A stretch of DNA of 64,000 nucleotides from an uncultured Chitinophagales bacterium (GTDB lineage: Bacteria > Bacteroidota > Ignavibacteria > UBA10030 > UBA6906): contig CAZIHJ010000003.1 in assembly GCA_964538485.1 (NCBI GenBank), positions 3,097 to 67,096 on the forward strand, read 5' to 3'. Made by a program: the position numbers and the translations under genes. Shown in pieces: positions 3,202 through 25,284 of the stretch (its first letter is position 1; the number at the start of each line of letters is the position of its first letter). Below the pieces are notes generated by a model. It worked only from the letters and a program-made list of their open reading frames with translations, ran no database searches and was not told the DNA's origin.

Positions 3202-4577
3202 AAGATCGTGTAACTCTTGTCGGGGCCGGGCTGGCAGGCTCGCTGCTTTCGATTTATCTTGCACAACGCGGCTTTGACGTTGATGTATATGAGCGCCGAC
3301 CCGACATGCGCAAAGTCAACATTGGGGGTGGACGTTCGATCAATCTTGCCTTATCCACACGTGGGATCCATGCGCTGAAGGAAGTCGGAGTTCTTGAACA
3401 GGTCATGAAAATCGCCATCCCGATGAAGGGAAGAATGATGCACGCAGTGTCCGGCGAGTTGACGTTTCAGCGATATGGCAAAGACGATACGGAGGTCATC
3501 TACGCAACATCGCGCAGTCAACTGAACATGGCGTTGATGGATGCAGCGGAACGGTTACCCAACGTTACGCTCCATTTCAATCGCAAGTGTACAGGAATGA
3601 ATTTTGGAACAGATGAACTCGCGCTGTTCGATGAAGTGGTTGGAAAGAGTATGAAGGTGCAAACCGGTACCGTGATTGGAACGGATGGCTCGGCTTCGGC
3701 TCTGCGGATGGAGATGGAGGGAATTCCCCAATTCCATTCATCCCAGCAATATCTTGAGTACGGTTATAAAGAACTTGCCATTCCGGCTGGGCCGATGGGA
3801 GCGTGGTTGCTCGAGAAGCATGCACTGCATATTTGGCCACGCGGCACGTTTATGTTGATCGCTCTTCCGAATATCGATGGAAGCTTCACGTGTACGTTCT
3901 TCTTCCCGCATGAGGGAGAGTTGAGCTTTAAGACATTGAACACCCGGGACCGGGTCAATACATTCTTTCACGAACATTTTCCCGATGCAATCGCACTCAT
4001 GCCCGATTTCATCGATCAGTTCTTTTCAAACCCCACGGGAGCCATGGTGACAGTCAAGTGCTCACCGTGGCACGCCGGTGGCAAGATGGCCCTACTCGGC
4101 GACGCGGCCCATGCCATTGTGCCGTTCTTCGGTCAGGGAATGAACTGTGCGTTTGAGGATTGCACCTCCCTGAACGAAATCATGGGCAAGAAATTGGAGG
4201 TGGAGAAACAGGAGATCGGAGAAGAGTGGTGGAAATCAGTGTTCGATGAGTATGAGCGGGCACGAAAGATCAATACTGACGCTATCGCCGATCTGGCCGT
4301 GGAGAATTTCGTTGAAATGCGGGACCTGGTTGCACACCCCAAATTTCTATTGAAGAAAAAAGTGGAACAGGCATTGCACCAGAGATTTCCGGAGAAATTT
4401 ATCCCCAAATACTCCATGGTGACCTTCCACCGGATTCCGTATGCCGTGGCACTCTCTCGTGGGAAAGTCCAGGAGAGGATCCTGGACGAGCTCTGTTCCA
4501 CCATTTCCACAGTGGATACACTGGATTGGGCCAGAGCGGGACAACTTATTGCAGGCCTTGAAACGCTGCATCAGTAA
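3198..4577 (+). CDS. kmo: kynurenine 3-monooxygenase (FAD-dependent)
   Basis: 459 aa with the Rossmann motif VTLVGAGLAGS at the N-terminus and GDAAHAIVPFFGQGMN. Translationally coupled to kynU. Confidence 0.85.
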   Translation: MKDRVTLVGAGLAGSLLSIYLAQRGFDVDVYERRPDMRKVNIGGGRSINLALSTRGIHALKEVGVLEQVMKIAIPMKGRMMHAVSGELTFQRYGKDDTEVIYATSRSQLNMALMDAAERLPNVTLHFNRKCTGMNFGTDELALFDEVVGKSMKVQTGTVIGTDGSASALRMEMEGIPQFHSSQQYLEYGYKELAIPAGPMGAWLLEKHALHIWPRGTFMLIALPNIDGSFTCTFFFPHEGELSFKTLNTRDRVNTFFHEHFPDAIALMPDFIDQFFSNPTGAMVTVKCSPWHAGGKMALLGDAAHAIVPFFGQGMNCAFEDCTSLNEIMGKKLEVEKQEIGEEWWKSVFDEYERARKINTDAIADLAVENFVEMRDLVAHPKFLLKKKVEQALHQRFPEKFIPKYSMVTFHRIPYAVALSRGKVQERILDELCSTISTVDTLDWARAGQLIAGLETLHQ

Positions 4578-4647: not shown

Positions 4648-6054
4648 ATGAGACCAACGCTGCGCATCGTTTCGTTTGTCATCACAATCTTCATTGCATT
4701 GATTGCCGGATGCTCCGAGAATCCTGAGGGAACGCCGCCGCCGGGACCAGCACCCGGTGTTGTTTCCACTGTCGTCAAACCTAATGAACACAACGTACTG
4801 AGTGCAATAGCCACTGTTCGTGCCGCCAATGCTGTTTCAGTATCCGTTGAATTCTGGAATGACTCTCTCGCAATGTCAGAAACAGCCGCCGTCCTTGTCG
4901 TCGACTCAGTTGCCGAGGTCCCGATTCTCGGACTGAGACCGGATCAAACGTACCAATTTCGCGCGAAAGCCCGGGCAGCCAGCGGTGAGACCGGATCGGG
5001 CGATCAGATTTCCTTTTCAACAGATCCTTTGCCCGACCACCTTCCTGGCTTTACACTCATCGGAAGTCAATCGCCCACTCCGGGCTACGTCATGATCGGG
5101 GTTTCCGGTGCTGGTGGGACGTATGGTGCGGCTGTAATACTTGACAACCTCGGACGCATTGTTTGGTACAAGAGGTTTCAAACAGCGGTGCTTGACTTCC
5201 AGCTCCAATTCACCGGCACGTACACCGCCGGCTCATTTCTTGATAGCGTCCTCGCTTTTTATGAGCTGGACCGTCTGGGCAATGTCGTTGGCCAGTACTC
5301 AACTGTTCAAGGAGAAGAAACCGGGGTGCATGAACTCCGGTTGTACAACGGCGCGTATTGCTTGTATGGCAGTGAGTACAGGGATTCAAATCTGACCGCG
5401 CTCGGCGGCCAGGCAAATGCCATTGTGCGCGGAATGACGATCGAGTATATCAGGAACGGCCAGCCGAATTTCTTTTGGAATACCTTCGACCATCTTGAGA
5501 TCACCGACGCCACCGCGGATATTAGTCTCACCGGTGTGAACGTCAACCCGTGGCATTCCAATGCAATCGAAGTTGACACCGACGGCAATGTGCTGGTGTC
5601 GTTCAAGAACATGGATGAGATCACCAAGATCAACGTACAGACAGGAGAGATCATCTGGCGGCTGGGAGGTGAAAACAATCAGTTCACGTTCGTCAACGAT
5701 CCGTTGAATGGTTTTTCGCATCAACACGGCATCCGCCGACTGGCCAATGGTAATATCATCCTGTTCGACAACGGCGCCCTCCACCAACCCCCGGTCAGTC
5801 GCGCCGTGGAGTATCGTCTCGACGAGTCAACAATGGTGGCAGAGATGGTATGGGAGTATCGTCACTCGCCCCCGCTCTTCGGCAACATTATGGGATTTGC
5901 CCAACGACTTGCGAATGGCAACACCGTGATTTGTTTTGGCTCGGCCCAACACGTTGTCGAAGTGAACAGCTCGGGAGTTGTGCAGTGGGAAGTGGCTGTC
6001 GATAATCCCGGATATAATCTATACCGGGCATTCAGGATAGAATCTTTGTACTAA
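4648..6054 (+). CDS. arylsulfotransferase (ASST)-family lipoprotein
   Basis: Lipoprotein signal (LIAGCSE). The motif NPWHSNAIEVDTDGNVLVSFKN indicates an ASST-like beta-propeller. Confidence 0.55.
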   Translation: MRPTLRIVSFVITIFIALIAGCSENPEGTPPPGPAPGVVSTVVKPNEHNVLSAIATVRAANAVSVSVEFWNDSLAMSETAAVLVVDSVAEVPILGLRPDQTYQFRAKARAASGETGSGDQISFSTDPLPDHLPGFTLIGSQSPTPGYVMIGVSGAGGTYGAAVILDNLGRIVWYKRFQTAVLDFQLQFTGTYTAGSFLDSVLAFYELDRLGNVVGQYSTVQGEETGVHELRLYNGAYCLYGSEYRDSNLTALGGQANAIVRGMTIEYIRNGQPNFFWNTFDHLEITDATADISLTGVNVNPWHSNAIEVDTDGNVLVSFKNMDEITKINVQTGEIIWRLGGENNQFTFVNDPLNGFSHQHGIRRLANGNIILFDNGALHQPPVSRAVEYRLDESTMVAEMVWEYRHSPPLFGNIMGFAQRLANGNTVICFGSAQHVVEVNSSGVVQWEVAVDNPGYNLYRAFRIESLY

Positions 6055-6219: not shown

Positions 6220-6250
6220 GCCGTTTCTCTTACGAGAACGGCTTTTTTAT
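6220..6250 (+). terminator. riboswitch expression-platform intrinsic terminator
   Basis: Stem gccgtttctc / gagaacggc with loop ttac, followed by TTTTTTATT. It lies immediately 5' of the receptor start codon. Confidence 0.75.
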
Positions 6251-6264
6251 TGAGGAAAAGGATC

Positions 6265-8700
6265 ATGAAGGGCTTCACGGTAATTCTCTGCACGCGTGTC
6301 TTGACGTTTCTCTTAATCGGACAAGATTCATCCGCCCAACCCTTCGGGTCCATCGCAGGCACAGTGAGCGATGCGACGACACGGAGATCAATTCCCGGAA
6401 CCAACATTTCTCTCGTCGGGACAGCTCTCGGCGCCATTACGGATACCTCCGGGGGGTTTCATATCAACAACGTCACGCCGGGAATGTATGAACTGCGGGC
6501 CTCGTTTGTCGGCTACACAACGAACATACAGAGCATACACGTCTTACCGGATGATTCATCCTTTGTGAGCATCGAACTCGTACCTGAGACGATTACCATT
6601 CAACCAATTACAGTGAGTGCTACCCGCGGACGATTGCGGGAAACGCCGGCAACATTTTCTACGCTTGACAGGATGAATATTCGCGATCATTATACCACCC
6701 AGGACATTCCGGTTCTCCTGTCGGAGCTCCCTTCAACAACATATTATTCGGACGCCGGCAATGGCATCGGCTACACATACCTGAATATCCGCGGCTTTGA
6801 TGCTCGCCGCATTGCGGTAATGGTCAACGGTATTCCACAAAATGATCCGGAGGATCACAACGTCTATTGGTTGGACATTCCCGATATTGCGGGGAGTCTG
6901 GAAGATGTTCAGGTGCAACGCGGTGCCGGCAGCGCTTTCTACGGGTCACCCGCGATTGGTGGTTCAGTGAATCTCGTAACGTCCGGTTTCGGACGGGAAC
7001 GTGAGATTATCCTGTCTGCGGGGGTTGGAAGCTTCAACTCACGCAAATACTCAGCTTCGTTCAGCTCCGGACTCATTGATAACAGGTACGCACTTCATGG
7101 ACGGCTTTCCAAGATGCTGAGCAGCGGCTACCGTGACCGATCCTGGGTTGATTTCAACAGCTACTTTCTGGGGATGATCCGCTACGATGAGAATATGACC
7201 ACGCAGGTGAACTTCTATGGAGGACCGATTTCCGACCATCTTGCATACTACGGGATTCCAAAGTCGGACGTGAAGGATAGATCAAAGCGGCGCACAAACC
7301 CAATCCTCCGGGAAGAGGAAGTTGAGAATTTCTCCCAGCCCCACTATGAAGTGCTGCATGAATGGCGGCTGAGCCGGACACTTACAGTGAACAACACAGC
7401 GTTTATCATTCTTGGTGAGGGCTTCTTCGATTATGATGGGAGCTGGGCGCCATTCTCATACTACCGGCTTACACAAGGAAACGGATTCAATGTTACCGGC
7501 GATCCCGATACGATGTACTTTAGTAGTGCACTCATCCGTGCAACCGTATCGAACAAGCAGTTTGGCTGGCTGCCTCGCATTACTCTGCGTCATGATAACG
7601 GTGAATTCATCGCCGGGGCTGAGGTACGATTCCACCGTTCGCTCCACTGGGGAAAACTGCAGCGCGTTGATATGAGCCCCGTGTCCATTCCCGAAGATTA
7701 TCGCTATTATGAATACAAGGGAGCAAAAGACATCTTCTCGCTTTATGTGCACGAACTGTATTCACTCCAGTCTAATGTGAACATCATGGCGAACGTGCAA
7801 TACGTCTTCAATCGTTACCGGCTCTACGAAGAGGGATTTCTCGGGACGGACTTTGCAGTCCCATACCATTTCTTGAATCCCCGCCTTGGCGTCAACTACA
7901 ATCTTGACGAGAACTGGAACACCTACCTCAGTCTTGCTTACACTTCCCGCGAACCACGATTGAAGAACCTGTATGATGCAGCGGAAGCGAGTACCCCCGC
8001 ATCTTGGGGTGCAATTGTGCCACAGTTTGCCGTGGACGCAAATGGCCAGTTCAATTTTGACCAGCCGCTGGTAAAGCCGGAGCGACTGCTTGATATCGAG
8101 TTGGGCGCAGGATATTCCTCGCCGCGCGCGAGTACGACGGCAAATGTCTACTGGATGGAGTTCACGGATGAGATTGTGAAGAGCGGTCAGGTGGATCGTT
8201 TCGGTCAACCCGTCACCGGGAACGCTGAGAGAACACGTCACATCGGCATTGAAATTTCGGGGCTCTATACTCCCGTTGCATGGCTTGAGGTGCGCGGTAA
8301 TGCGACCCTCAGTCGGAACACATTTGTCAGACACACGGATTATTCATCGGGAGCCCCGCTCAGCCTGAGTGACAACCCGATCGCGGGATTTCCGGACGTT
8401 CTTGCAAACTTGCGGGTGACGTATCGGAAAGAAGGTCTCGCGGTGTCGGTTGCGGGCAGGTACGTCGGCAAACAGTATACGGATAACTTTAAGGACGAAG
8501 CCAATACCGTGGATGCGTACGTTGTCTGTGATGGATGGATTGCTCATACCCTGCAGAGTGTTTTTGATGATGTCAATGTCGAGGCAAAGTTACAGGTGAA
8601 TAATCTCTTTGATAAACTTTACGCCGCCTATGGCGAGGGTGACCGGTTTTTTGTTGGGGCAGAAAGAAACGTATTCTTCAATCTTTCCATACACCTTTGA
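6265..8700 (+). CDS. TonB-dependent outer-membrane receptor (predicted thiamine uptake, OMthi-like)
   Basis: Signal peptide, CarbopepD_reg-like N-terminal domain, plug, a 22-strand barrel and a C-terminal aromatic residue. The ATG at 6265 follows AGGAAAAGG. Sits downstream of the TPP riboswitch. Confidence 0.85.
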   Translation: MKGFTVILCTRVLTFLLIGQDSSAQPFGSIAGTVSDATTRRSIPGTNISLVGTALGAITDTSGGFHINNVTPGMYELRASFVGYTTNIQSIHVLPDDSSFVSIELVPETITIQPITVSATRGRLRETPATFSTLDRMNIRDHYTTQDIPVLLSELPSTTYYSDAGNGIGYTYLNIRGFDARRIAVMVNGIPQNDPEDHNVYWLDIPDIAGSLEDVQVQRGAGSAFYGSPAIGGSVNLVTSGFGREREIILSAGVGSFNSRKYSASFSSGLIDNRYALHGRLSKMLSSGYRDRSWVDFNSYFLGMIRYDENMTTQVNFYGGPISDHLAYYGIPKSDVKDRSKRRTNPILREEEVENFSQPHYEVLHEWRLSRTLTVNNTAFIILGEGFFDYDGSWAPFSYYRLTQGNGFNVTGDPDTMYFSSALIRATVSNKQFGWLPRITLRHDNGEFIAGAEVRFHRSLHWGKLQRVDMSPVSIPEDYRYYEYKGAKDIFSLYVHELYSLQSNVNIMANVQYVFNRYRLYEEGFLGTDFAVPYHFLNPRLGVNYNLDENWNTYLSLAYTSREPRLKNLYDAAEASTPASWGAIVPQFAVDANGQFNFDQPLVKPERLLDIELGAGYSSPRASTTANVYWMEFTDEIVKSGQVDRFGQPVTGNAERTRHIGIEISGLYTPVAWLEVRGNATLSRNTFVRHTDYSSGAPLSLSDNPIAGFPDVLANLRVTYRKEGLAVSVAGRYVGKQYTDNFKDEANTVDAYVVCDGWIAHTLQSVFDDVNVEAKLQVNNLFDKLYAAYGEGDRFFVGAERNVFFNLSIHL

Positions 8701-10728: not shown

Positions 10729-11524
10729 CACTGCGCTGACGTTGAACTTCAAACAGGCACACAGCACTTGCGCTGGCAACGTTCAAAGAGTCCGTTTCGT
10801 TCAGCATCGGAATAGCGACGCGTTCATCGCTGAGTTGAAGAACCTCCGGTGCAATCCCGGTGTCTTCGTTTCCCAACACAATACAGATATCGTCCGTCAA
10901 GTGTGCCAGGTGAATTGCTGTGCTCTCGTGCGGTGACGTTGCAATTATCCGCAGGCGGTTCTTCATTGTTGAGAGCGTTGAGGCGAGATCCTGAACGTGT
11001 ACGACCGGAATCCTGAATACAGCGCCCATTGAATTCCGCACCGCGCGCCGAAGGTACGGACTGCACGATGTGCCACCCACGAGAATCGCCTGCACACCGA
11101 ACCCCCCGCAGTTCCGCACAATCACCCCGACATTTTCCGCATTGGCTAATCCATCCAACGCAACTATCAACAATGGCGAGTGAAGCGAAGAGAGCACTTC
11201 GCTGAGGGACTTCTCATCGGGGAGACTGCCCACGGCCATTATTCCTTGATGCAGCCGGAAGCCCACGATGGTATTGAGAAGTGATTCCTCGGCGACATAG
11301 ACATCGCAGGGTGGAGTCAGGCCGTTTGAAAAGAGTTCGTGATACCATGCGGGAGTGACAAGGATAGACACAACGGTGAGTTCCGATGCAAGCAGTCTGC
11401 GCACTACTTTCTCCCCTTCAGCAACAAAAATCCCCTGGACTTTGTGCTCTTGCTGGCGTCGTAGTGTGCGATACGGCTGTAACGCTGGAAGGTCAAACGA
11501 TGTTACGGGAACAACGCGGCTCAA
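10715..11524 (-). CDS. TrmH/SpoU-family RNA 2'-O-methyltransferase
   Basis: SpoU_methylase C-terminal domain (VVALDGLANAENVGVIVRNCGGFGV) with an N-terminal substrate-binding domain. Confidence 0.75.
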   Translation of the reverse strand: MSRVVPVTSFDLPALQPYRTLRRQQEHKVQGIFVAEGEKVVRRLLASELTVVSILVTPAWYHELFSNGLTPPCDVYVAEESLLNTIVGFRLHQGIMAVGSLPDEKSLSEVLSSLHSPLLIVALDGLANAENVGVIVRNCGGFGVQAILVGGTSCSPYLRRAVRNSMGAVFRIPVVHVQDLASTLSTMKNRLRIIATSPHESTAIHLAHLTDDICIVLGNEDTGIAPEVLQLSDERVAIPMLNETDSLNVASASAVCLFEVQRQRSAIVA

Positions 11525-12888
11525 TTCAGTTTGATCTGGTATTGTTGAATTTTGGTGTAGAGGGTTTTGAGACTGATACCGAGAATCTTGGCTGATTCCG
11601 TTTTGTTGCCACGAAAACTCCGCAACACCCCCTCAATATGCATCCGTTCGATCTCCTTGATGGGGAGAGCTGTGCCGATAATATTGTCTGCCTGTGAACC
11701 GCTTTGAAGCATCATAGGTGCATTCGGCAGGGAGAGATCACGGGTTTCAATGGTGTTGTCGTTGCAGAGAATTGCAGCACGCTCAATGACGTTTTCCAAC
11801 TCGCGCACGTTTCCCGGCCAATCATACTCCATCAAAACTTCCATTGCCTTTGCCGAAATGCTCTTCTTCACTTTGGTCTTCATTCGGGATTCGAGAAAGG
11901 ACTTCACAAGCAGTGGAATATCATCCTTTCGTTGCCGGAGTGGGGGAAGCTCGATGGTGATAACGTTGACTCTGTAGAGGAGGTCTTCCCTGAATCTTCC
12001 TTCCTTGACTTCCTCCTGCAAATTCTTGTTGGTAGCGGAGAGAATCCGGCAGTCTGCTTTGAGAACGGTATTCCCGCCGACCCTGCGGAACTCACCGCTC
12101 TGGATAAACCGGAGTATCTTTGGCTGGACGATGTGACTGATGTCCCCGATCTCGTCGAGGAAGAGTGTGCCCTTGTCGGCAATCTCAACGATGCCCTGCT
12201 TCATAGCGCGTGCGTCGGTGAAAGCCCCTTTTTCGTAGCCAAAGAGCTCGCTCTCGATTAACGTATCCGGGATGGACGCGCAGTTGAGGGTGACAAACGG
12301 TTCCGATTTCCGGTCGCTGTGTTGGTAGATAAAGTTGGCAATGAGCTCTTTGCCGGTTCCACTGGGGCCCTGTATCAACACTGTCGATTCAGTCGGTGCA
12401 ACTTTTGCAGCGAGATCCAGAACACGCCGCAATGCGTCGCTTTCTCCGACAATCTGATTTGGCCCCTGAAGCCGGTTCAATTCCGTTTTCATCACAATGT
12501 TTTCAATCATCAACTGCCGGTGCTCGATTGCGCGTGAGATTGTCGTCAGGAGATCATCTGCAGTTGTTGGTTTGGAGATATAATCATACGCGCCGAGTTT
12601 CATGCACTCGACCGCAATTTTGATGTCCGAGGTACCTGTGAGCATGACGACTGCAATACCGGGGAAGTTGGTCTTGATGAATTTCAGCGTTTCCAATCCA
12701 TCGACCTTCGGCATCTTTATATCCATCAGAACAATGTGGAAGGGCTTGGTCTGTACAGCGTTGATTGCCGCCACACCATCAATTGCTGTGTCTATGGTGT
12801 ATCCGGCACCTGAAAGAAGGGAGGAAAGCATATAACGGAACGCTTCTTCGTCGTCTACGATCAGTATGGAGACTTCTTTCTTTGTCAT
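11521..12888 (-). CDS. sigma-54-dependent response regulator (NtrC family)
   Basis: Receiver domain (DDEE...D), an AAA+ sigma-54 interaction domain (GPSGTGKE, GAFTDA, ESELFGYEKGAFTDA) and a C-terminal Fis-type HTH. Confidence 0.85.
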   Translation of the reverse strand: MTKKEVSILIVDDEEAFRYMLSSLLSGAGYTIDTAIDGVAAINAVQTKPFHIVLMDIKMPKVDGLETLKFIKTNFPGIAVVMLTGTSDIKIAVECMKLGAYDYISKPTTADDLLTTISRAIEHRQLMIENIVMKTELNRLQGPNQIVGESDALRRVLDLAAKVAPTESTVLIQGPSGTGKELIANFIYQHSDRKSEPFVTLNCASIPDTLIESELFGYEKGAFTDARAMKQGIVEIADKGTLFLDEIGDISHIVQPKILRFIQSGEFRRVGGNTVLKADCRILSATNKNLQEEVKEGRFREDLLYRVNVITIELPPLRQRKDDIPLLVKSFLESRMKTKVKKSISAKAMEVLMEYDWPGNVRELENVIERAAILCNDNTIETRDLSLPNAPMMLQSGSQADNIIGTALPIKEIERMHIEGVLRSFRGNKTESAKILGISLKTLYTKIQQYQIKLN

Positions 12889-13052
12889 TGGTGGGGCCAG
12901 GTTGTGGAAGGAATGTGATTAGAATAGAGAAAAGCCCGCCGAAAGTCAACTCGAAATCTCGCGAACCTATTGAATTTATTGACTCTTTGGAGTGTTGTTC
13001 TTACCTTGACCTCAACGCCGTTATCTTGTACATCCATCCAGAGTGCCTCACC

Positions 13053-14141
13053 ATGCGACTATCCGAACGATTCATTCAGACAATCCCCAAAGTACTTCTC
13101 CATGATCACCTTGATGGCGGGGTACGACCCCAGACGGTCATCGACCTGGCAAAAGATATCGGTTACGACCAACTTCCGACGTCGGATGCGGGCGAACTTG
13201 AAGAATGGTTCCATCGGGGGGCAAAGCGCGGCAGTTTGCCTCTCTACCTTGAGGGTTTTGCTCACACATGCGGGGTGATGCAAACCGAAGAAGCCTTGGA
13301 GCGCGTGGCGTATGAGATGATGGAAGATATGTACAACGACGGCGTTGTCTACGTTGAAACCCGTTTCTCTCCGATCTTCCATACTGATCGGGGCTTGCAC
13401 TGGGATGATGTCGTGAATGCTGTGCTGAAAGGATTGGAACGCGGGTATCGCGATTTTGGTGTGGAATTCGGTCTGATCATTTGCGCGATGCGCAACCTGA
13501 CGCTCTCCCAGGAAATGGCGGAGCTGGCGGTGGATTATCGTGAACGTGGAGTCGTCGGATTCGATCTTGCCGGCGAAGAGGGGGGATTCCCGCCGAAGAA
13601 GCATGTTGACGCGTTTCATTACATTCAGCGCGAGAATTTCAATATCACCATTCATGCGGGTGAGGCATTCGGCAAGGAGAGCATCTGGCAAGCCATTCAA
13701 TGGTGCGGGGCACACAGAATCGGACACGCCACACGGCTGATTGAAGATGTTGGTTTGGACAAGCGCGAAACCCACAAGATTATCAAAATGGGATATCTTG
13801 CGCAGTACGTCCTCGATAAGCGAATCCCGCTTGAGATCTGTCTCACCAGTAACGTGGATACCGGCGCAGTAAAGAGTCTGGAGGAACATCCGTTCGGCAT
13901 TTTTCACAAGTATAAATTCCGTGTTACACTGAATACTGACGACAGGTTGATGAGCGATACGACGATGACGAAGGAGTTCAAGATCGCTCATCAGGTCTTC
14001 AAACTCTCGTTGGACGATCTGGAGAAAATTACCATCAACTCCATGAAGAGTGCCTTCATTCCCTACAACAAGCGTATCCGGTTGATCTATGATGTGATAA
14101 AGCCTGGATACCAGAAGGCACGTCAGCGACTAAAGAAGTAA
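13053..14141 (+). CDS. add: adenosine deaminase
   Basis: MRLSERF...PKVLLHDHLDGG, SLTSNVDT and HAGE motifs. The ATG at 13053 is the likely start; the track ORF from 12765 extends into the divergent gene. Confidence 0.85.
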   Translation: MRLSERFIQTIPKVLLHDHLDGGVRPQTVIDLAKDIGYDQLPTSDAGELEEWFHRGAKRGSLPLYLEGFAHTCGVMQTEEALERVAYEMMEDMYNDGVVYVETRFSPIFHTDRGLHWDDVVNAVLKGLERGYRDFGVEFGLIICAMRNLTLSQEMAELAVDYRERGVVGFDLAGEEGGFPPKKHVDAFHYIQRENFNITIHAGEAFGKESIWQAIQWCGAHRIGHATRLIEDVGLDKRETHKIIKMGYLAQYVLDKRIPLEICLTSNVDTGAVKSLEEHPFGIFHKYKFRVTLNTDDRLMSDTTMTKEFKIAHQVFKLSLDDLEKITINSMKSAFIPYNKRIRLIYDVIKPGYQKARQRLKK

Positions 14142-14148
14142 CCCCGCC

Positions 14149-14658
14149 ATGAAGCGCATCCCTACGGTATGGGCGCTCCTCGCAACCGGTACCATGGTGC
14201 TGGCCGGTTGTGCAACAACGGTTCCCTACCGGGCGCTCAACGACGACTGCAATTGTGAGTCCTACACTGCCCGGGATCCGGACGGGAAGATGACCTCCAC
14301 AGTATCCGCTTCATATCGAATTGATGACGGTATCACAACCTATATTACGATTCTGATGAAGAATACGGGGAGTGACACATTGGATCTTTCTCTTGCATAC
14401 GTGAAAATTTCCTCCCGCAATATTCCCTACCATTCCAATAATAAGTCGATCCCCCTTGATATTCTCTTCGTGTTGCCCGGGAATGAAGAAACGTTGCGAT
14501 TGGAAGGGCACGTTGATCAGGGAAAAATCGGAGACCCGTGGCTGAAGATTGCGGGAGAAGAACTTGAGATTACGCTCAAAGGAATGCGGGTGGGTCATCG
14601 TGAACTGGCACCACAGGTGGTGCGATTCATTCCTCATAATCCAAACATCGGAATGTGA
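14149..14658 (+). CDS. lipoprotein of unknown function
   Basis: Signal peptide plus lipobox (LAGC). No recognisable domain. Confidence 0.45.
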   Translation: MKRIPTVWALLATGTMVLAGCATTVPYRALNDDCNCESYTARDPDGKMTSTVSASYRIDDGITTYITILMKNTGSDTLDLSLAYVKISSRNIPYHSNNKSIPLDILFVLPGNEETLRLEGHVDQGKIGDPWLKIAGEELEITLKGMRVGHRELAPQVVRFIPHNPNIGM

Positions 14659-14667
14659 CGAGAAACT

Positions 14668-15189
14668 ATGAACCTGTATCTTGCGCGACATGCTGAAGCG
14701 GTACCTGTTGGTGGGCGCATTCTGAAGGACGCCGACCGCACTCTCAGTCCGGTGGGCGAAGCTCACGCCGAACAGATGGGCAAGGTCCTCGCGAAAATTG
14801 ATCCGGGTATTCATGTTGTTGCGACAAGTCCGTTGGTACGTGCTGTACACACGGGGGAGATCATCGGTCATCAAGTGAGCGACCGCCCGGTGTTTCACGT
14901 GACGGAGCATCTCGCGCCCGGTTTTCGTGAAATGAGATTACTCGAAACCCTCTATGCGTTGAGTGGTGGTGGAAGCATCGTTGCAGTGGGACATCAACCG
15001 GACGTGAGTGCATTTGTTTCATACTTGATTGCAGGCGCGATGTCCGCAGCAGTGGCATTTCCTCCCGGGGCAGTCGCATGTCTGAGTATACAGCAGGTCT
15101 CCTCGCGCCCGGAAGCACATTTGTGCTGGCTTCTTACACCTGATGTTGTCAAGAGTCTCCAGCCCGAACGGACACAGAGATCATCATGA
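14668..15189 (+). CDS. sixA: phosphohistidine phosphatase SixA-like (histidine phosphatase superfamily)
   Basis: LYLARHAEA...RH motif near the N-terminus; about 170 aa. Confidence 0.65.
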   Translation: MNLYLARHAEAVPVGGRILKDADRTLSPVGEAHAEQMGKVLAKIDPGIHVVATSPLVRAVHTGEIIGHQVSDRPVFHVTEHLAPGFREMRLLETLYALSGGGSIVAVGHQPDVSAFVSYLIAGAMSAAVAFPPGAVACLSIQQVSSRPEAHLCWLLTPDVVKSLQPERTQRSS

Positions 15190-15824
15190 ATCGAATTATT
15201 TCTCTCAAGGTTTCATTCACTTTCATGTTCCTGCTCATCAGCTTCATTCTTATTCCGGGTTGCGGGAAGCACGGCGGCACGCCCGTGGTCCGTGTCGATA
15301 CGCTCTCAACCGAGCAGGATCAGTTGCTCATGATCAATTTTCTTCCCCTCGATCTTTCTTATGGCGGGGTGAAAGAACGATTCCCGTCGCTTGGTGAAGT
15401 GAAGGCGGGTGCGGTTCCGGGTGGCACGTTGACCGGGACAGCGACGGGAAAAATGAAGACGCCGGGCGGTTATGAATCAATCGCGGAGCTGGAATTTGAA
15501 CACAACGCCCTCACACGTTATTCTTTTATTGTCATCGCCGAAAGTGTGGTGACGGCAATGATGTATCAACGGCTGCAATCATTCTATACCATGCGATACG
15601 GCAACTATCATCAGGAGCTGCGCGAGGAGGGGGCGCAACGATGGGGAAGAAGCTATTGGACCTCGGATATTTTTGCTGTTGTGGTTACACTACAGGACTC
15701 CGCGGGCACCCATTCGCTTCGGTGGGGATTTGAAAAATTACGCGAGAGTAACCCGGAGCAGCCTGAAGCTCATGCTATTCGATCAACTCAGTCACCCTTT
15801 GCCACTACAGCGGAGTATCCATGA
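15186..15824 (+). CDS. lipoprotein of unknown function
   Basis: Signal peptide plus lipobox (IPGCG). Overlaps the sixA stop and the next start. Confidence 0.45.
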   Translation: MNRIISLKVSFTFMFLLISFILIPGCGKHGGTPVVRVDTLSTEQDQLLMINFLPLDLSYGGVKERFPSLGEVKAGAVPGGTLTGTATGKMKTPGGYESIAELEFEHNALTRYSFIVIAESVVTAMMYQRLQSFYTMRYGNYHQELREEGAQRWGRSYWTSDIFAVVVTLQDSAGTHSLRWGFEKLRESNPEQPEAHAIRSTQSPFATTAEYP

Positions 15825-17101
15825 CCTCCCTCGCTACACGACGAACATTTCTTCGCACCTTTGCCGGTGGCGCATTCGGCGGAGCGGTGCTATACGCATT
15901 TCCCGCAGATGCGCGCGCAAAATACATCCTTAGCCAGGACCAGCACGTGCCGGAAGATGATGAACATTTTTGGCGCATCGTGCGCGATCAGTTTCCGCTG
16001 AAGCGGGAGCCGGTGTTTCTCAACAATGGTACAATGGGTCCGTCGCCGTACGTGGTGATTGACGCCGTGAAGACGGAAATGGAAGAAGTAGACCGCACGG
16101 CGCGTTATGGTGGATGGGAAGATGTGCGGGTGAAGATCGCACGGTTCATCAATGCAAGCGTGGAAGAGATTTCACTCACCCACAACGTTACCGAGGGAAT
16201 CAATGTTGTTGCGTGCGGATTGCCATTAAAGCGCGGTGATGAAGTAATCCTGACGAACCACGAACATGGCGGTAATGCAATCCCGTGGCTTGCCCGTGCG
16301 CGCCGGGATGGCATCGTGGTCAAACCCGTCATGCTCGCATCCACTGCAGATGAAATCCTCAACCGTATCAATGATCTCATCACTCCTCGTACAAAAGCCA
16401 TTGCCGTCCCGCATATCACGTGTACCATCGGACAGGTGCTTCCTGCAAAGGCGATATGCCAGCTCGGACATGAGAAGGGATTGCGCGTGATGCTCGATGC
16501 TGCACATACGCCCGGTATGTTGCCGTTGGACGTGAAGGAACTCGGCTGTGATTTTCTTGCAACCTGCGGCCATAAATGGATGTTGGGACCGAAGGGGACG
16601 GGGTTTCTTTACGTGAGAAAGGAAGTTCAGGACGAAGTGGAGCCATACTGGACGGGTGCGCTTTCAGATACGGGATGGGATTTGCAGAAGGGAACACTGG
16701 AGTTTCGCAAGGATGCGCACAAGTACGATTTCGCCACACAAAATTCGGCACTGTACGTTGGACTGGGCGCGGCAATCGACTTCCTGCACCATCTCGGAAT
16801 GGAGAATGTCACGCGACGCGGCCAGGCGCTTGCATCAGCACTTCGGTCAGAGTTGCAGTCGATGGGCGATAAAGTGGAAATACTGACTCCCGATGAGGCC
16901 GGTGGGTACGGTTCCGTGTTGGGATTCAGATTAAAGAATATTGCGTATGATGTTCTGCAGAAGACATTATTGGAGAAACATAAAATTATCACACGGATGG
17001 TGCCGGAGAACGGCCTGAATTGCAACCGGATTTCCACCCACATCTATAACAGTCGGGAGGAAGTGCAGAAGTTAGTTGAGGCGCTGAAATCGTTGGCCTA
17101 A
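15821..17101 (+). CDS. TAT-signal class-V-fold PLP-dependent enzyme (cysteine desulfurase / isopenicillin-N-epimerase-like)
   Basis: Twin-arginine motif TRRTFLRTFAGGA...ADARA. PLP-lysine motif ATCGHKWMLGPKGTGFLYV and a class V aminotransferase fold. Confidence 0.7.
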   Translation: MTSLATRRTFLRTFAGGAFGGAVLYAFPADARAKYILSQDQHVPEDDEHFWRIVRDQFPLKREPVFLNNGTMGPSPYVVIDAVKTEMEEVDRTARYGGWEDVRVKIARFINASVEEISLTHNVTEGINVVACGLPLKRGDEVILTNHEHGGNAIPWLARARRDGIVVKPVMLASTADEILNRINDLITPRTKAIAVPHITCTIGQVLPAKAICQLGHEKGLRVMLDAAHTPGMLPLDVKELGCDFLATCGHKWMLGPKGTGFLYVRKEVQDEVEPYWTGALSDTGWDLQKGTLEFRKDAHKYDFATQNSALYVGLGAAIDFLHHLGMENVTRRGQALASALRSELQSMGDKVEILTPDEAGGYGSVLGFRLKNIAYDVLQKTLLEKHKIITRMVPENGLNCNRISTHIYNSREEVQKLVEALKSLA

Positions 17102-17129
17102 CTGTCGTGATACTCACATGGAGGAACAC

Positions 17130-17465
17130 ATGAATCGATCATCGTTGTTGAAAACAGTTGCCACCATTCTCTTCTGCGGTCTGCTGGCCGGGCCGGCAGC
17201 ATTCGCGCAAAAATCTCAGAAGACGGAGAAACCAAAAACGACACAATCGGCTGGGACATTCAAGGAGATGCTTTCGAAGCACGTCGGCAAGCAAACCAAC
17301 CTGGGTAAACTGATAAAAGTGGGTCCGGACTATGTTGCGGTTGAATCCGAAGAGGTGCAGACGATGATTCAACTGCAGGCAATCCAGTCATTCAGGGTTG
17401 TGGTCATTAAAGATGAAGAAACCTCCGAAGAGCGTTTGGAGATTACACTGCTCGCCGGAGACTGA
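17130..17465 (+). CDS. small secreted protein of unknown function
   Basis: Signal peptide (LLAGPAAFAQ) with GGAGG 5 nt upstream of the ATG at 17130. No recognisable domain. Confidence 0.4.
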   Translation: MNRSSLLKTVATILFCGLLAGPAAFAQKSQKTEKPKTTQSAGTFKEMLSKHVGKQTNLGKLIKVGPDYVAVESEEVQTMIQLQAIQSFRVVVIKDEETSEERLEITLLAGD

Positions 17466-17467
17466 TC

Positions 17468-17947
17468 ATGAAACGAATTGCAGTGATGTTGATGCTGTCC
17501 CTGCTCTTTGGATGCACGGATGAGGAGGAAATACGATCGATTGTTCAAGAGGAAATGTCCCGGTACGAGGGTAAACAGATTGTGAAACCAGTTGATGTGA
17601 TCGGGCCGTACAGTCCCGCGGTGCGGGTTGGCCCGTTCCTCTTCGTCTCCGGACAGATTGCCCTCGACCAGGCAACCGGCGTACTGCGCAACGAGAGTAT
17701 CGAAGCGGAAACGCGGCAGGTTTTGGACAACCTCATGCACATTCTACGCGCTGCCGGTTATGATTCGTCTCACGTTATCAACGCAACGGTTTATCTCAAG
17801 AACATGAATGACTACCCGAAGATGAACCTGATCTATGGCGGCTATTTTCCCGAAGAGAGTTATCCTGCCCGCACAGCCGTTGCCGTGAGTGAGTTGCCAC
17901 GACAGGCGAATGTGGAAATTGCCGTTGTAGCGTGGAAGGCGGAGTGA
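17468..17947 (+). CDS. RidA/YjgF-family reactive-intermediate deaminase with lipoprotein signal
   Basis: Lipobox LLFGC, then a full RidA fold (GPYSPAVRVGPFLFVSGQ...PARTAVAVSELP). Confidence 0.75.
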   Translation: MKRIAVMLMLSLLFGCTDEEEIRSIVQEEMSRYEGKQIVKPVDVIGPYSPAVRVGPFLFVSGQIALDQATGVLRNESIEAETRQVLDNLMHILRAAGYDSSHVINATVYLKNMNDYPKMNLIYGGYFPEESYPARTAVAVSELPRQANVEIAVVAWKAE

Positions 17948-18045
17948 GAGGGTTTGACTAAAGCCCTCAGCGTTTTTCTGGCTTTCGGCAATCCACGAGC
18001 TAAAGCTCGTGGCGAGTCAATAGAGAATTCAATGGAGTAGTACTC

Positions 18046-19710
18046 ATGCAGCATAATGTAACAACGAAGAATATCAAAGCCCTTCGCGGCACCACCCTCT
18101 CCTGCAAAGGCTGGATACAGGAAGCCGCGCTGCGTATGCTGATGAATAATCTTGACCCCGACGTTGCAGAAAAGCCCGATGAGTTGATCGTCTATGGCGG
18201 TGTGGGTAAAGCTGCGCGCAATTGGGAATGCTACGATGCAATCGTGCGAACCTTAAAGAACTTGGAAAACGATGAGACCCTGCTCGTCCAATCCGGCAAG
18301 CCGGTGGGTATTTTCAAAACGCACGAGAACGCTCCCCGAGTGCTTATCTCCAACAGTATGCTCGTCCCCAAATGGGCGACATGGGATGAGTTCCGTCGAC
18401 TCGAAGCTCTCGGTCTCACGATGTACGGTCAGATGACCGCAGGAAGCTGGATTTACATCGGCACACAGGGGATTCTGCAAGGGACGTATGAGACCTTTGC
18501 AGCGTGCGCTGAGAGATACTTCGGTGGAACCCTTGCAGGCAGACTCCTCGTCACTGCCGGACTCGGCGGCATGGGCGGCGCGCAACCTCTCGCTGCAACG
18601 ATGAATGGTGCTGCATGCCTTGCGATTGAAGTTGATCGCTCACGCATCGAGAAGAGACTGAAGACTGGATACGTCGATGAGATGGCAACATCGCTCGATG
18701 AGGCGTTGCTCATTCTGCAGACGGCCAAAGAGCTGAAGGAAGCCAAGTCCGTTGCTCTGCTTGCGAATGCTGCCGAAGTGTTGCCGGAGCTCCTTGCCCG
18801 TAACATCGCAGTAGATATTCTCACCGATCAAACTTCTGCGCATGATACACTCAACGGTTACGTCCCTGCCCACATATCGTATGAAGCAGCGCTTGGCCTC
18901 CGCAAATCAGATCCTAAGAAGTATGTGCAACTTGCTCAGGAGTCCATCGTTGAACATGTACAGGCCATGCTGGGCCTACAGAGAAAAGGGGCAATAACGT
19001 TCGATTACGGCAATAATATCCGCGGTGAAGCTCTGGCCAACGGCTTGACCAATGCGTTTGATATCCCGGGCTTCGTGCCTGAGTATATTCGACCGCTGTT
19101 TTGCGACGGCAAAGGGCCGTTCCGTTGGGCCGCTTTGTCCGGTGAGCCGGAGGATATTTATCGAACCGACCGGGCAATTCTCGAGACGTTTCCGGAGAAC
19201 AAGCCCCTCTGTCGCTGGATAGAGAAAGCACAGAAGCAGATACACTTCCAGGGGTTGCCGGCGCGGATTTGCTGGCTCGGTTACGGTGAGCGGGCAAAGA
19301 TGGGGAAGATATTCAACGATCTTGTCGCGCGGGGCGAAGTGAAAGCACCGATTGTTATCGGCCGCGATCATCTGGACTGTGGCTCCGTTGCTTCTCCGAA
19401 CCGCGAGACCGAGAAGATGAAAGACGGTAGTGATGCCATTGCCGATTGGCCCATCCTGAATGCTTTGCTCAATGCCGTCGGTGGAGCAAGCTGGGTAAGT
19501 GTGCATCACGGTGGCGGCGTAGGCATGGGGCTTTCGATTCACGCGGGCATGGTTGTCGTCGCCGATGGCACCAAAGAAGCAGAGGCAAGATTGCAGCGTG
19601 TGCTGACATATGATCCTGGAATGGGAATTATCCGTCATGCGGATGCAGGATATGAACGAGCGATTGAAAATGCGAAGAGTCAGGGTGTGAACGTGCCGAT
19701 GATGAAATGA
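18046..19710 (+). CDS. hutU: urocanate hydratase
   Basis: 554 aa with the conserved urocanase NAD-binding region ([12 protein letters not shown]). Confidence 0.9.
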
Positions 19711-19753: not shown

Positions 19754-20152
19754 ATGTCGACCACGAACACTTCAGATGTTCATTTACTGTTTAAGGAAGA
19801 AGTGTTTAGTCTGATCGGGGCGGCAATTGACGTGCATAGAGAACTCGGCACAGGATTTCTGGAAGCTGTCTATCACGAAGCACTTGAGATCGAATTACGT
19901 TCACGGAACATTCCATATGAATCTCAGAAGTGCCTACCGATCTCTTATAAAGGGACTCGACTGCGTAAGGAGTATGTCGCTGACTTCCTTATCTTTGATA
20001 AGATAATTGTTGAACTGAAGGCGCTCGACCGACTATCAGGCATTGAAGAAGCTCAGATATTAAATTATCTCAAAGCATCAGGCTTGAAGGTTGGGGTACT
20101 CATCAACTTTGGATCAGTGGGGAAACTCGAATGGAAACGTTTCATCAAATAA
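19754..20152 (+). CDS. GxxExxY protein (PD-(D/E)XK-like, TIGR04256 family)
   Basis: GTGFLEAVYHEAL motif, 132 aa. The gene is visibly AT-richer than its flanks. Confidence 0.8.
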   Translation: MSTTNTSDVHLLFKEEVFSLIGAAIDVHRELGTGFLEAVYHEALEIELRSRNIPYESQKCLPISYKGTRLRKEYVADFLIFDKIIVELKALDRLSGIEEAQILNYLKASGLKVGVLINFGSVGKLEWKRFIK

Positions 20153-23002: not shown

Positions 23003-24247
23003 TTGAACCTATTCATCAAGAACATTTCCCAGCTCGTCACAGTTGCATCTGGCGGTCAGCGTGTCAAAACCGGTAATGCAATGCGCGATGTTGGCGTGAT
23101 CAGGAATGCCGGTGTATTATGTACCGGAGGGAAAATTACCTGGGTCGGCGAAATGAGCGCATTCCCCCAATCGCTTGCTGGGAATACTCCAGAACTGGAT
23201 GCAACGGGCAAGGTGGTTTTTCCGGGGTTCGTGGATTCACACACGCATATGATGTTTGCCGGAAACCGCGCTCATGAGTTTGCACTGAGGACAACAGGAG
23301 CGACATATCAGCAAATAGCAGATCAGGGTGGAGGCATCCTCAACACCATCACGCATGTCCGGACAGCAACAAAGAGGGAGCTCAAACGCTCCACCGCACG
23401 GTACCTCACCGAGATGATGAAACATGGAACGACAACGGTTGAAATCAAGTCGGGGTACGGGCTGACCATGGACGCCGAGATCAAAATGCTTGAGGCGATC
23501 AACGAACTCAAGACCGAAGAAATGATGACCGTGGTGCCGACATTTATCGGGGCGCATGCAGTTCCGCCGGAGTACAAGCAGAACAAGGCGGAGTATGTCC
23601 GACTTGTGGTCGAACAAATGATTCCTTATGTCGGACGCAAAGGGCTCGCCACGTTCAGCGACGTGTTCTGCGAAAAAGGATATTTTGAGATTGAAGACAC
23701 GGAGCGCATTGCGATTGCTTCGAAGCAGAACGGTATGGCCGTCAAGCTTCATGCCGAGGAACTCTCCTCGCTTGGAGGTGCTGAACTCGCAGCGCGCCTT
23801 GAGGCGACCTCGGCAGACCACCTTGAGCATGTAACACCCGAGGGCATTGCCGCGCTCAGGAAGGCGGGCGTTGTGGCAACATTGCTTCCCGGTGTCTCGT
23901 TTTTCCTGAACCACGGCTATGCTCCGGCCCGCGCACTGATTGACGGGGGCGCGCCAGTCGCTATTGCAAGCGATTTCAATCCGGGTTCGTGTATGTCGTT
24001 TTCTATGCCGTTGATGATGACCATTGCTTGCACACAAATGCGTATGACCCCGGAAGAGGCAATCACGGCCTCCACGTTGAATGCCGCCGCGGCGCTGAAT
24101 CTATCCGCTACGACAGGAAGTATTGAAGTCGGGAAAAATGCTGATCTGGCAATTGCGGACATCCCTGACTATACCTTCCTTGCATATCATTTTGGGATGA
24201 ATCATGTAGTCACGGTGGTCAAGAACGGCACCATTCTCGAACTGTAA
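23003..24247 (+). CDS. hutI: imidazolonepropionase
   Basis: 414-aa amidohydrolase with GFVDSHTHMMFAG and KLHAEE motifs. Probable TTG start. Confidence 0.85.
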   Translation: MNLFIKNISQLVTVASGGQRVKTGNAMRDVGVIRNAGVLCTGGKITWVGEMSAFPQSLAGNTPELDATGKVVFPGFVDSHTHMMFAGNRAHEFALRTTGATYQQIADQGGGILNTITHVRTATKRELKRSTARYLTEMMKHGTTTVEIKSGYGLTMDAEIKMLEAINELKTEEMMTVVPTFIGAHAVPPEYKQNKAEYVRLVVEQMIPYVGRKGLATFSDVFCEKGYFEIEDTERIAIASKQNGMAVKLHAEELSSLGGAELAARLEATSADHLEHVTPEGIAALRKAGVVATLLPGVSFFLNHGYAPARALIDGGAPVAIASDFNPGSCMSFSMPLMMTIACTQMRMTPEEAITASTLNAAAALNLSATTGSIEVGKNADLAIADIPDYTFLAYHFGMNHVVTVVKNGTILEL

Positions 24248-24264
24248 ACCATAACGGAATTGTT

Positions 24265-25284
24265 ATGCCACGCATAGTTGAATGTGTCCCCAATTTCAGC
24301 GAAGGACAGAACATCAAGATCATCAATGCGATTGGTGGGGCAATCAGTTCCGTTGCCGGGGTGAAGTTCATAAGTGCTGAACCCGACAAGGATTACAATC
24401 GTACCGTTGTCACGTTCATTGGCGAGCCGGATGCTGTTGTTGATGCAGCGTTTGCAGCGACACGGAAGGCAGCGGAGTTGATTGACATGACAACCCAGAA
24501 GGGGAAGCACCCGCGCCTCGGTGCCACCGATGTCGTACCCTTCGTCCCGATCTCCGGTGTAACGATGGAAGAATGTGTTCAACTTGCTCATCGTTTCGGA
24601 AAGCGGGTGGGGGAAGAACTGAAGATTCCGGTCTATTTGTATGAAGAAGCAGCGACGCGACCGGAACGCCGCAACCTTTCCACAATCCGCAAAGGCGAAT
24701 ACGAGGGCCTTGCAGCGAAACTTCAGGACCCGGTGTGGGTTCCGGATTATGGAGCGGCCGCATTCAATGCGAAATCAGGCGCAACGGTGACGGGTGCGAG
24801 AATGTTCCTCATCGCGTATAATGTTAACCTGGATACTGCTGATGCAGAGATCGCACAAGAGATTGCGTTGACGATTCGTGAAAGCGGACGTGTGAAAAAG
24901 GATGATGCGGGCAATCCAATTGTGGATGCTCAGGGAAGGAAAGTGAGCATTCCCGGAACACTCAAAGCCATCAAGGCCATGGGAGTACCCCTCGAGGCGC
25001 ATAACATCGCTCAGGTGTCGGTGAATGTCGTGAATTATCACATCACACCTCCGCATATTGTCTTTGAAGAAGTGAAGAAACACGCTGCCAAACTTGGTGT
25101 GAAGGTTACCGGAAGCGAAATAGTCGGGCTAACACCGATGGAAGCTCTGGTGATTGCAGGAAGACACTATACCCCGCAGGCGTCAAGTGATGACGAGTGT
25201 ATCACGAGTGCAAACGCTCATCTCGGACTGAGCCAATTGGAGCAGTTCGATCCGAAGAAGAAAATCATCGAATACCAATTGTAG
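24265..25284 (+). CDS. ftcD: glutamate formimidoyltransferase
   Basis: MPRIVECVPNFSEG N-terminus and FTCD transferase N and C subdomains. Confidence 0.85.
   Translation: MPRIVECVPNFSEGQNIKIINAIGGAISSVAGVKFISAEPDKDYNRTVVTFIGEPDAVVDAAFAATRKAAELIDMTTQKGKHPRLGATDVVPFVPISGVTMEECVQLAHRFGKRVGEELKIPVYLYEEAATRPERRNLSTIRKGEYEGLAAKLQDPVWVPDYGAAAFNAKSGATVTGARMFLIAYNVNLDTADAEIAQEIALTIRESGRVKKDDAGNPIVDAQGRKVSIPGTLKAIKAMGVPLEAHNIAQVSVNVVNYHITPPHIVFEEVKKHAAKLGVKVTGSEIVGLTPMEALVIAGRHYTPQASSDDECITSANAHLGLSQLEQFDPKKKIIEYQL

Follow-up and report, generated by a model that had tools for sequence, protein, structure and literature searches.

The window analyzed here, a stretch of 64,000 nucleotides from an uncultured Chitinophagales bacterium (GenBank assembly GCA_964538485.1, contig CAZIHJ010000003.1, positions 3,097 to 67,096), contains a run of seven plus-strand genes at 13053-17947 in its open reading frame (ORF) list. 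Two of these genes encode a class-V (fold type I) enzyme dependent on pyridoxal 5'-phosphate (PLP) that carries a signal for twin-arginine translocation (Tat) (426 amino acids, or aa; 15821-17101, plus strand; Aminotran_5 E = 1e-59) and a RidA protein of 159 aa with a lipoprotein signal (17468-17947, plus strand). On balance, we lean toward the view that the seven genes form a tightly packed, probably co-transcribed string of unrelated functions rather than a dedicated system, and that the adjacency of the PLP gene and ridA reflects synteny inherited in one lineage. A first-pass annotation of this DNA had read the run as an operon of exported proteins built around the PLP enzyme and RidA and acting as an extracytoplasmic module that modifies or detoxifies amino acids. 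Taken as a whole, that interpretation is partly supported.

Gene presence was scored at the locus level, by tblastn and ORF inspection, in a sample of loci seeded with the PLP enzyme (25 genome loci, 23 of them informative; L018 was too short and L025 gave a weak partial match) and in a second sample seeded with RidA (23 metagenome loci and 7 long contigs, 19 informative). The proposal that an exported PLP enzyme and a lipoprotein RidA share a conserved neighborhood was not upheld. Among the PLP-seeded loci, ridA adjoined the PLP gene in 9/23 (L001-L007, L015, and L016) and was missing from 14/23. A PLP gene was detected in 6/19 RidA-seeded loci (L030-L034 and L055), and the remaining 13/19 had none (L026-28, L035-39, L041, L042, and L052-54). 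Every more distant PLP ortholog lacked a RidA neighbor and adjoined genes for ThiL, a major facilitator superfamily (MFS) transporter, an S9 peptidase, a GNAT acetyltransferase, or unknown proteins. The pairing was confined to one clade in which the whole neighborhood is syntenic and which consists of metagenome-assembled genomes (MAGs) labelled Bacteroidota, Ignavibacteriota, or 'Chitinophagales'.

The order of the block in this clade is solute symporter (SSS), sigma-54 regulator (minus strand), add, lipoprotein 1, sixA, PF04008 or lipoprotein 2, PLP enzyme, small secreted protein, ridA, Peptidase_M19 (M19), hutU, and SpoIIE, in which the two lipoprotein genes and the PF04008, PLP, small, and M19 genes are facultative. 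The SSS transporter, the sigma-54 regulator, add, sixA, ridA, hutU, and SpoIIE make up the backbone of the syntenic loci, and add and sixA were present in all of them. The ridA-linked PLP genes formed a single clade on the PLP tree, and we therefore attribute the adjacency to one evolutionary event. On neighbor-joining (NJ) trees of hutU and add, loci with and without the PLP gene were interleaved. The single clade and the interleaved trees together point to a single ancestral arrangement from which the PLP gene was later lost or relocated several times. Each of the four possible presence-absence combinations of PLP and M19 was seen among the loci, and in L036/37, L039, L041, and L042 an exported RidA was kept without either gene. 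The member of the pair that stays fixed is RidA, along with its housekeeping neighbors, which are kept even more faithfully. In L010, which is otherwise syntenic and retains the PLP and small genes, ridA gives way to the gene for an IS200-like Y1 transposase (L010:3492-3929; PF01797, E = 4e-26), and the PLP gene is broken by a run of N or a frameshift.

On this view, the PLP enzyme would acquire both its fold and its PLP in the cytoplasm, would cross the inner membrane by the Tat pathway in its cofactor-loaded form, as PvdN and PtaA do, and would be freed into the periplasm after cleavage between ADARA and K. RidA, with its imine/enamine deaminase domain, would be held by an N-terminal lipid at a membrane outside the cytoplasm, either within the periplasm or, possibly, on the cell surface. 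Its gene is part of the conserved backbone (add, sixA, ridA, and hutU), and RidA would have a role independent of this PLP enzyme. The genes for the PLP enzyme, the small protein, the two lipoproteins, and the M19 dipeptidase are facultative occupants of slots around that backbone.

Several observations weigh against this view. The NJ trees of hutU and add carry no support values. Within the clade, the PLP gene, where present, is always directly upstream of small-ridA, and in L002, L003, and L005 it abuts ridA itself, 0 or 8 nt apart, the arrangement expected of genes coupled in translation or function. Genomes that have no PLP gene at this locus may carry one elsewhere, the counts being locus-level. 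Co-directional junctions of ≤28 nt account for 49% of those elsewhere in the window (n = 37), so that six successive junctions of this kind are tighter than the window background (0.49^6, or ~0.013); it speaks for the string view, on the other hand, that equally tight junctions also link plainly unrelated genes in the window, for example dinB-like/kynureninase and SpoIIE/DUF5700. Finally, both the PLP enzyme and RidA are predicted to leave the cytoplasm, and the known substrates of RidA are products of PLP-dependent eliminations.

The PLP enzyme scored 202.8 bits against Aminotran_5 (gathering score, 21.5) and was under the cutoff of every NCBIfam model, including the sufS model TIGR01979 (203.3 bits versus a cutoff of 475.1, over residues 98-424 only) and the PvdN model NF051467 (127.4 bits versus a cutoff of 650, aligned over residues 6-423). 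A profile of the family searched against PDB sequences gave 239 bits with SufS, 203 with C-DES, 196 with PvdN, and 171 with CsdA. The AlphaFold2 (AF2) model of the enzyme, with a predicted local distance difference test (pLDDT) score of 85, had SufS as its top Foldseek match (TM score, 0.78; 28% identity). Residues H149, D226, K252, and R403 were invariant across the aligned orthologs; H149 is the stacking His, D226 the N1 Asp, and R403 the arginine for the alpha-carboxylate of a substrate. K252, whose codon lies at 16574-16576 (plus strand) within an invariant CGHKW motif, aligns with the PLP lysine in the HK motif of SufS and is the predicted Schiff-base lysine. A search of PDB sequences with the C-terminal 95 residues returned chance ribosomal-protein matches only. 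In both the phmmer and the profile alignments, Cys361 of Bacillus subtilis SufS falls in an insertion of 8-9 residues that SufS alone has. Cys401, the one cysteine of the window enzyme near this site, is S, A, or G in orthologs. These comparisons identify the PLP enzyme as a Cys-less member of the SufS/C-DES/PvdN branch. Because the catalytic-Cys loop is deleted, the enzyme is not a persulfide-forming desulfurase, and the IscS/SufS-type activity that had been considered for it can be set aside. The retention of K252, H149, D226, and R403 together with the loss of the Cys loop suggests a free or N-terminal alpha-amino acid as its most likely substrate, and its chemistry is most likely that of a lyase, transaminase, or decarboxylase.

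The family to which this enzyme belongs was found in MAGs of Bacteroidota, Ignavibacteriota, Gemmatimonadota, and Phycisphaeraceae. The Bacteroidales orthologs (L019:6412-12272, L020, and L024) are 37% identical to the window enzyme, have the signal NRNRF, and sit in a different conserved trio, in which the PLP gene overlaps an upstream gene of ~530 aa and is followed by a gene of ~770 aa; neither neighbor has a Pfam family. This trio may be a better place to look for the function of the PLP family.

The notion that an exported eliminase would make an enamine or imine for RidA to quench is chemically sensible. In its fullest form, it would describe a lineage-specific extracytoplasmic deamination module, in which the exported PLP enzyme carries out a beta or gamma elimination and the lipoprotein RidA hydrolyzes the 2-aminoacrylate or imine to a keto acid and ammonium. 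A C-DES-like C-S lyase acting on cystine, the oxidized form expected in the periplasm, is one candidate for the first step. Such a module would protect the enzyme's own PLP and feed nitrogen and carbon uptake, and in sister lineages another exported enzyme would supply the substrate of RidA. We regard this account as unlikely. Several observations are consistent with it. The PLP gene and ridA lie side by side in 16 loci, the direct abutments described above among them; the export signals of both products are conserved; the PLP enzyme, like C-DES, has no desulfurase cysteine and keeps the carboxylate-binding Arg; and the catalytic Arg of RidA is kept. There is also precedent, in Chlamydomonas and Gluconacetobacter, for an extracytoplasmic RidA-like subunit associated with an amino-acid-deaminating enzyme (PMC5053998). 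Against these points, the adjacency traces to one clade and one event, 14/23 PLP-seeded loci have no RidA, and 13/19 RidA-seeded loci have no PLP enzyme, four of which (L036/37, L039, L041, and L042) are also without M19 and keep an exported RidA. In addition, a decarboxylation or transamination of the PvdN type would not need RidA, and if the acidic motif that follows the RidA cysteine (see below) drives surface exposure, the two proteins would be in different compartments.

A broader formulation would make the membrane-anchored RidA the dedicated partner of exported enzymes that generate enamines or imines, a Tat-PLP lyase in the window and an M19 dehydropeptidase in sister lineages. This would be an undescribed envelope system, and we judge it slightly less probable again than the module just outlined. 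If it were true, such a system would remove amino groups from external amino acids or peptides and protect the exported PLP cofactor against 2-aminoacrylate.

The exported RidA might instead be the partner of the small secreted protein or of the sister-lineage M19 dipeptidase, with the PLP enzyme as an unrelated passenger. Renal dehydropeptidase I, an enzyme that cleaves dehydropeptides, is a member of the M19 family, and an exported M19 enzyme of the dehydropeptidase type could cleave dehydro-dipeptides and leave RidA to hydrolyze the released enamines. The small gene lies directly upstream of ridA, at 2-60 nt, in most loci, with or without the PLP gene, and in L028 and L052-L054 the M19 gene, which encodes a hydrophobic N-terminal signal, overlaps ridA or trails it within 8 nt. 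The small gene is missing from L002, L003, and L005, the M19 gene is missing from the window and from many other loci, and a link between M19 and RidA was not found in the literature searched. The small protein also has no recognizable fold relative or family, as detailed next, and we consider a partnership of this kind improbable.

The small gene encodes a protein of 111 aa with a Sec signal ending in AFA, before Q. Its start was set at 17130 (17130-17465, plus strand; an upstream ATG lies at 17118) because the Met at this position aligns with residue 1 of 37 homologs. The family is narrow: a search of 1.84 billion proteins yielded 43 representatives at E ≤ 1e-3. The Sec signal of the small protein is followed by a variable low-complexity linker rich in Lys, Thr, Pro, and Gln and by a beta-barrel domain of ~65 aa, and the alignment showed conservation of the signal and of the C-terminal domain. 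The AF2 model reached pLDDT values of 91-97 over blocks covering residues 51-110, with one helix and five strands. Comparison of this model with PDB folds gave no match at E < 0.1 (best E = 0.18), and in Pfam there was only a sub-threshold match to DUF2642.

The export of both the PLP enzyme and RidA was suggested by the first-pass annotation, and both signals are borne out by conservation. The N-terminus of the PLP enzyme, MTSLATRRTFLRTFAGGAFGGAVLYAFPADARA followed by K, combines the Tat consensus T-R-R-T-F-L-R with 17 uncharged residues and an AxA cleavage site (A-R-A before K). The predicted twin-arginine signal peptide, from TRRTFLR to ADARA before K, thus comprises residues 1-33 (15821-15919, plus strand; from sequence and conservation). 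The motif RRxF[L/I/F] was present in 110/110 full-length proteins within the 120 best homologs of the enzyme; a narrower Tat pattern missed 8 of the 110, all of which have RRxFF. Orthologs in MAGs of Ignavibacteriales, Bacteroidales, Gemmatimonadota, and Phycisphaeraceae, 31-59% identical to the enzyme, keep RR or R-N-R at the same place, and the arginine motif is retained across orthologs spanning 94% to 31% identity. R7 and F10 were invariant in both orthologue alignments (A1 and A2; 25-30 sequences), and R8 was invariant in A2. Residues 1-32 have a pLDDT of <50 in the AF2 model, which fits a disordered presequence. Internal Met residues begin only at M72, already within the conserved core aligned with SufS and PvdN, and a downstream start is therefore excluded. 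By its conservation, the Tat signal of the PLP enzyme is genuine.

RidA consists of a predicted lipoprotein signal peptide, MKRIAVMLMLSLLFG, ahead of a lipidated Cys16 (LFGC; 17468-17515, plus strand), an acidic TDEEE stretch within a tether of ~25 residues, and a canonical RidA domain at residues 40-157. The protein scored 126.5 bits against TIGR00004 (cutoff, 106.25). The domain aligns end to end with solved RidA proteins of 124-128 aa, with the PAR arginine kept (e.g., PH0854 and ST0811), and on these alignments the protein is a bona fide member of the RidA subfamily. The lipobox pattern [LVI][ASTVIF][GAS]C was matched by 113/118 close homologs. Four of the five outside the pattern have their Cys in an atypical box, which brings the number with a Cys to 117/118, and the remaining homolog, P0127 (224 aa), has no Cys within its first 45 residues. 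A hydrophobic segment and the Cys were kept in ten syntenic RidA orthologs, and internal Met30 was not conserved. In the RidA relatives of L038 and L041-L043 an AxA-type signal stands in place of the lipobox, and RidA export therefore appears to be kept even where the lipid anchor is not. That the export signals are annotation artefacts, with true downstream starts and cytoplasmic products, is contradicted and very improbable: a start at Met30 of RidA would yield a canonical 130-aa protein, but that Met is not conserved and the hydrophobic segment and Cys are, the ridA start lies 2 nt from the preceding stop codon, and the Tat arginine motif is kept in the 25-30 aligned orthologs down to 31% identity, with M72 of the PLP enzyme inside the SufS/PvdN-aligned core.

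Conservation of the mature N-terminus is strong in the lipoprotein RidA clade, with the consensus (R/G)(P/S)x(E/D)(E/D)(D/E)(V/I)R after the Cys (window 17513-17540 and 117 homologs). The pattern, a polar or positive residue ahead of an acidic run, resembles in character the lipoprotein export signal of Bacteroidetes (PMC5080379), and RidA may on this ground be displayed at the cell surface and not face the periplasm. The clade comprises >110 sequence clusters at ≥62% identity, and a search of the literature for a periplasmic or lipoprotein RidA found no description of one. The lipoprotein RidA clade thus appears to be undescribed, and it is the most interesting residue of the finding.

The ORF list, with the small gene taken from 17130, confirms the description of seven packed plus-strand genes with gaps of -4 to 28 nt; the successive gaps are 7, 9, -4, -4, 28, and 2 nt, and the lipoprotein 2 gene overlaps both sixA and the PLP gene by 4 nt. 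The label of an operon of exported proteins applies to five of the seven products, which carry export signals, but not to Add and SixA, which have no signal peptides. The add gene (13053-14141, plus strand) encodes a cytoplasmic adenosine deaminase (A_deaminase E = 1.3e-102; NF006847, 489 bits versus a cutoff of 412). It is followed by the gene for lipoprotein 1 (169 aa; 14149-14658, plus strand), with the signal MKRIPTVWALLATGTMVLAG before Cys21 in the lipobox LAGC, and by the gene for a cytoplasmic SixA-like histidine phosphatase (14668-15189, plus strand; TIGR00249, 75.6 bits versus a cutoff of 74.5; His_Phos_1 E = 2.9e-11). Lipoprotein 2 (212 aa; 15186-15824, plus strand) has a signal ending in FILIPG before Cys26, and its lipobox, IPGC, has an atypical Pro at position -2. 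Neither lipoprotein had a Pfam match, even at E ≤ 1, or an NCBIfam family, and no relatives of either were detected outside the clade. Among the syntenic loci, homologs of lipoprotein 1 were found only in L001, L007, L026, L027, L052, L054, and L055. Lipoprotein 2 was limited to the window, L001, and L010, which are grouped together on the hutU tree.

The divergent intergenic region at 12889-13052, between the sigma-54 response-regulator gene (11521-12888, minus strand) and add, is the presumed promoter region of the string. A plus-strand scan upstream of add found no convincing sigma-70 site, and the Bacteroidetes -7 motif TAnnTTTG is absent from 12889-13052; across the whole window this motif occurs at chance level (20 observed versus 20.9 expected). 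Directly 3' of the ridA stop is a terminator-like hairpin (GAGGGTTTGACTAAAGCCCTC) with a T-rich tail (17948-17978, plus strand), and hutU starts 98 nt beyond that stop. No terminator-like sites were found at the internal junctions of the seven-gene string. The hairpin is only suggestive as a terminator because terminator-like sites in this region are not in excess of the shuffled expectation (7 versus 6.1); it is the probable 3' end of the transcription unit. The arrangement suggests that the seven genes are probably co-transcribed.

The facultative slots of the block hold different genes in different loci. The slot from sixA to the PLP or small gene is variable, and in most other loci it holds a gene for a cytoplasmic PF04008 'adenosine specific kinase' (L028:6074-6556; E = 1e-72), close to add. 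A Peptidase_M19 gene with an N-terminal hydrophobic signal lies 3' of lipo-ridA, at -13 to +8 nt, in many sister loci (L026-L028 and L052-L054, for example L028:7474-8754 and L052:6495-7721, and also L006, L030, and L033), and the window has none. We considered M19 as a replacement for the PLP gene and rejected this since all four presence-absence combinations occur. The small protein as RidA's constant partner was likewise rejected, given its absence from L002, L003, and L005. A gene of the GxxExxY/PDDEXK_3 nuclease family follows hutU in the window (19754-20152) and in L007 (12676-13074) and lies between the PLP gene and ridA in L055 (5468-5890); its differing positions suggest that it is mobile or frequently inserted.

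Elsewhere in the window, plus-strand genes of amino-acid catabolism are plentiful (1939-4577, 18046-19710, and 23003-25284). They encode kynureninase and a kynurenine-monooxygenase-like flavin adenine dinucleotide (FAD) enzyme, and then HutU, an imidazolonepropionase-like amidohydrolase, and glutamate formiminotransferase. The histidine-utilization genes are dispersed among unrelated genes and do not form one hut operon. An arylsulfotransferase (ASST)-domain lipoprotein gene (4648-6054) is followed by a gene for a TonB-dependent receptor with an N-terminal CarboxypepD_reg domain (6250-8700). In relatives, genes for a TonB receptor and for thiamine pyrophosphokinase lie ahead of the symporter gene.

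The biology of RidA is established for the cytoplasm, mitochondria, and plastids. A lipid-anchored RidA clade of this size and coherence would mean that stress from reactive enamines or imines, or deliberate imine hydrolysis, also takes place in the bacterial envelope. The Tat-PLP family, for its part, is widespread in bacteria of the Fibrobacterota-Chlorobiota-Bacteroidota (FCB) group and in other environmental bacteria. Were the PLP enzyme and RidA to cooperate, they would give bacteria abundant in soil and sediment a route for deaminating amino acids outside the cell. The comparative data suggest that the two do not cooperate, and in that case the locus is a useful caution that tight packing in compact genomes is not by itself the mark of a functional module.

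To our knowledge, PvdN and PtaA are the only characterized PLP enzymes exported by the Tat pathway, and a search of the literature found no description of Tat-exported class-V enzymes in Bacteroidota. Both are established examples (PMC6206403 and PMC6085387). Tat export of a PLP-loaded enzyme had been called uncommon in the first-pass annotation, and this is true of the characterized literature but not of the family, which extends over several phyla; such export is rare in the literature and not new. PvdN, the periplasmic pyoverdine-tailoring enzyme of Pseudomonas (PDB 5I90 and 5HH9), shares the class-V PLP fold and the twin-arginine signal, is exported folded with its PLP, and is the only solved relative whose match runs along the full query, N-terminus included (query 7-422). 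The window enzyme differs from it in score (127 bits against the 650-bit cutoff), in its host, which belongs to the FCB group and not to Pseudomonas, and in context: the pyoverdine/nonribosomal peptide synthetase (NRPS) surroundings (pvdMNO) are absent, and the neighbors are add, sixA, the lipoprotein genes, ridA, and hutU. The group-II desulfurases SufS and CsdB are the best sequence and structure matches and have the PLP Lys, stacking His, Asp, and carboxylate-binding Arg in common with the window enzyme. Unlike the latter, they possess the catalytic-Cys loop (C361 in B. subtilis and C364 in Escherichia coli), which is deleted in the window enzyme with no conserved Cys replacing it. The window enzyme is also exported by prediction and has no SufE, SufU, or SufBCD partners. 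The L-cystine C-S lyase C-DES from Synechocystis (PDB 1ELQ and 1N2T) also works without a catalytic cysteine, by a beta-elimination that yields aminoacrylate. With 203 bits against the family profile over query 57-424, it falls in the same branch. C-DES is cytoplasmic, however, and has no curated model, and the window enzyme is no closer to it than to SufS or PvdN.

For the association of a RidA-type protein with an extracytoplasmic amino-acid-deaminating enzyme, the nearest parallels are L-amino-acid oxidase (LAAO) systems, namely, the periplasmic LAAO of Chlamydomonas, with a catalytic M-alpha and a RidA-like M-beta subunit, and the Tat-signal LAAO-RidA-cytochrome c cluster of Gluconacetobacter diazotrophicus (PMC5053998). 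The likeness is one of analogy only, with no homology implied, the partner in these systems being a flavin oxidase and not a PLP enzyme. A survey of the Rid family makes no mention of signal peptides, periplasm, or lipoproteins (PMC4433059). The window RidA shares with the RidA subfamily of the Rid/YjgF/UK114 proteins (Salmonella and E. coli RidA and Pyrococcus PH0854) a TIGR00004 score above cutoff, an end-to-end domain, and the PAR arginine, and it differs from them in its conserved lipoprotein signal and tether of ~25 residues.

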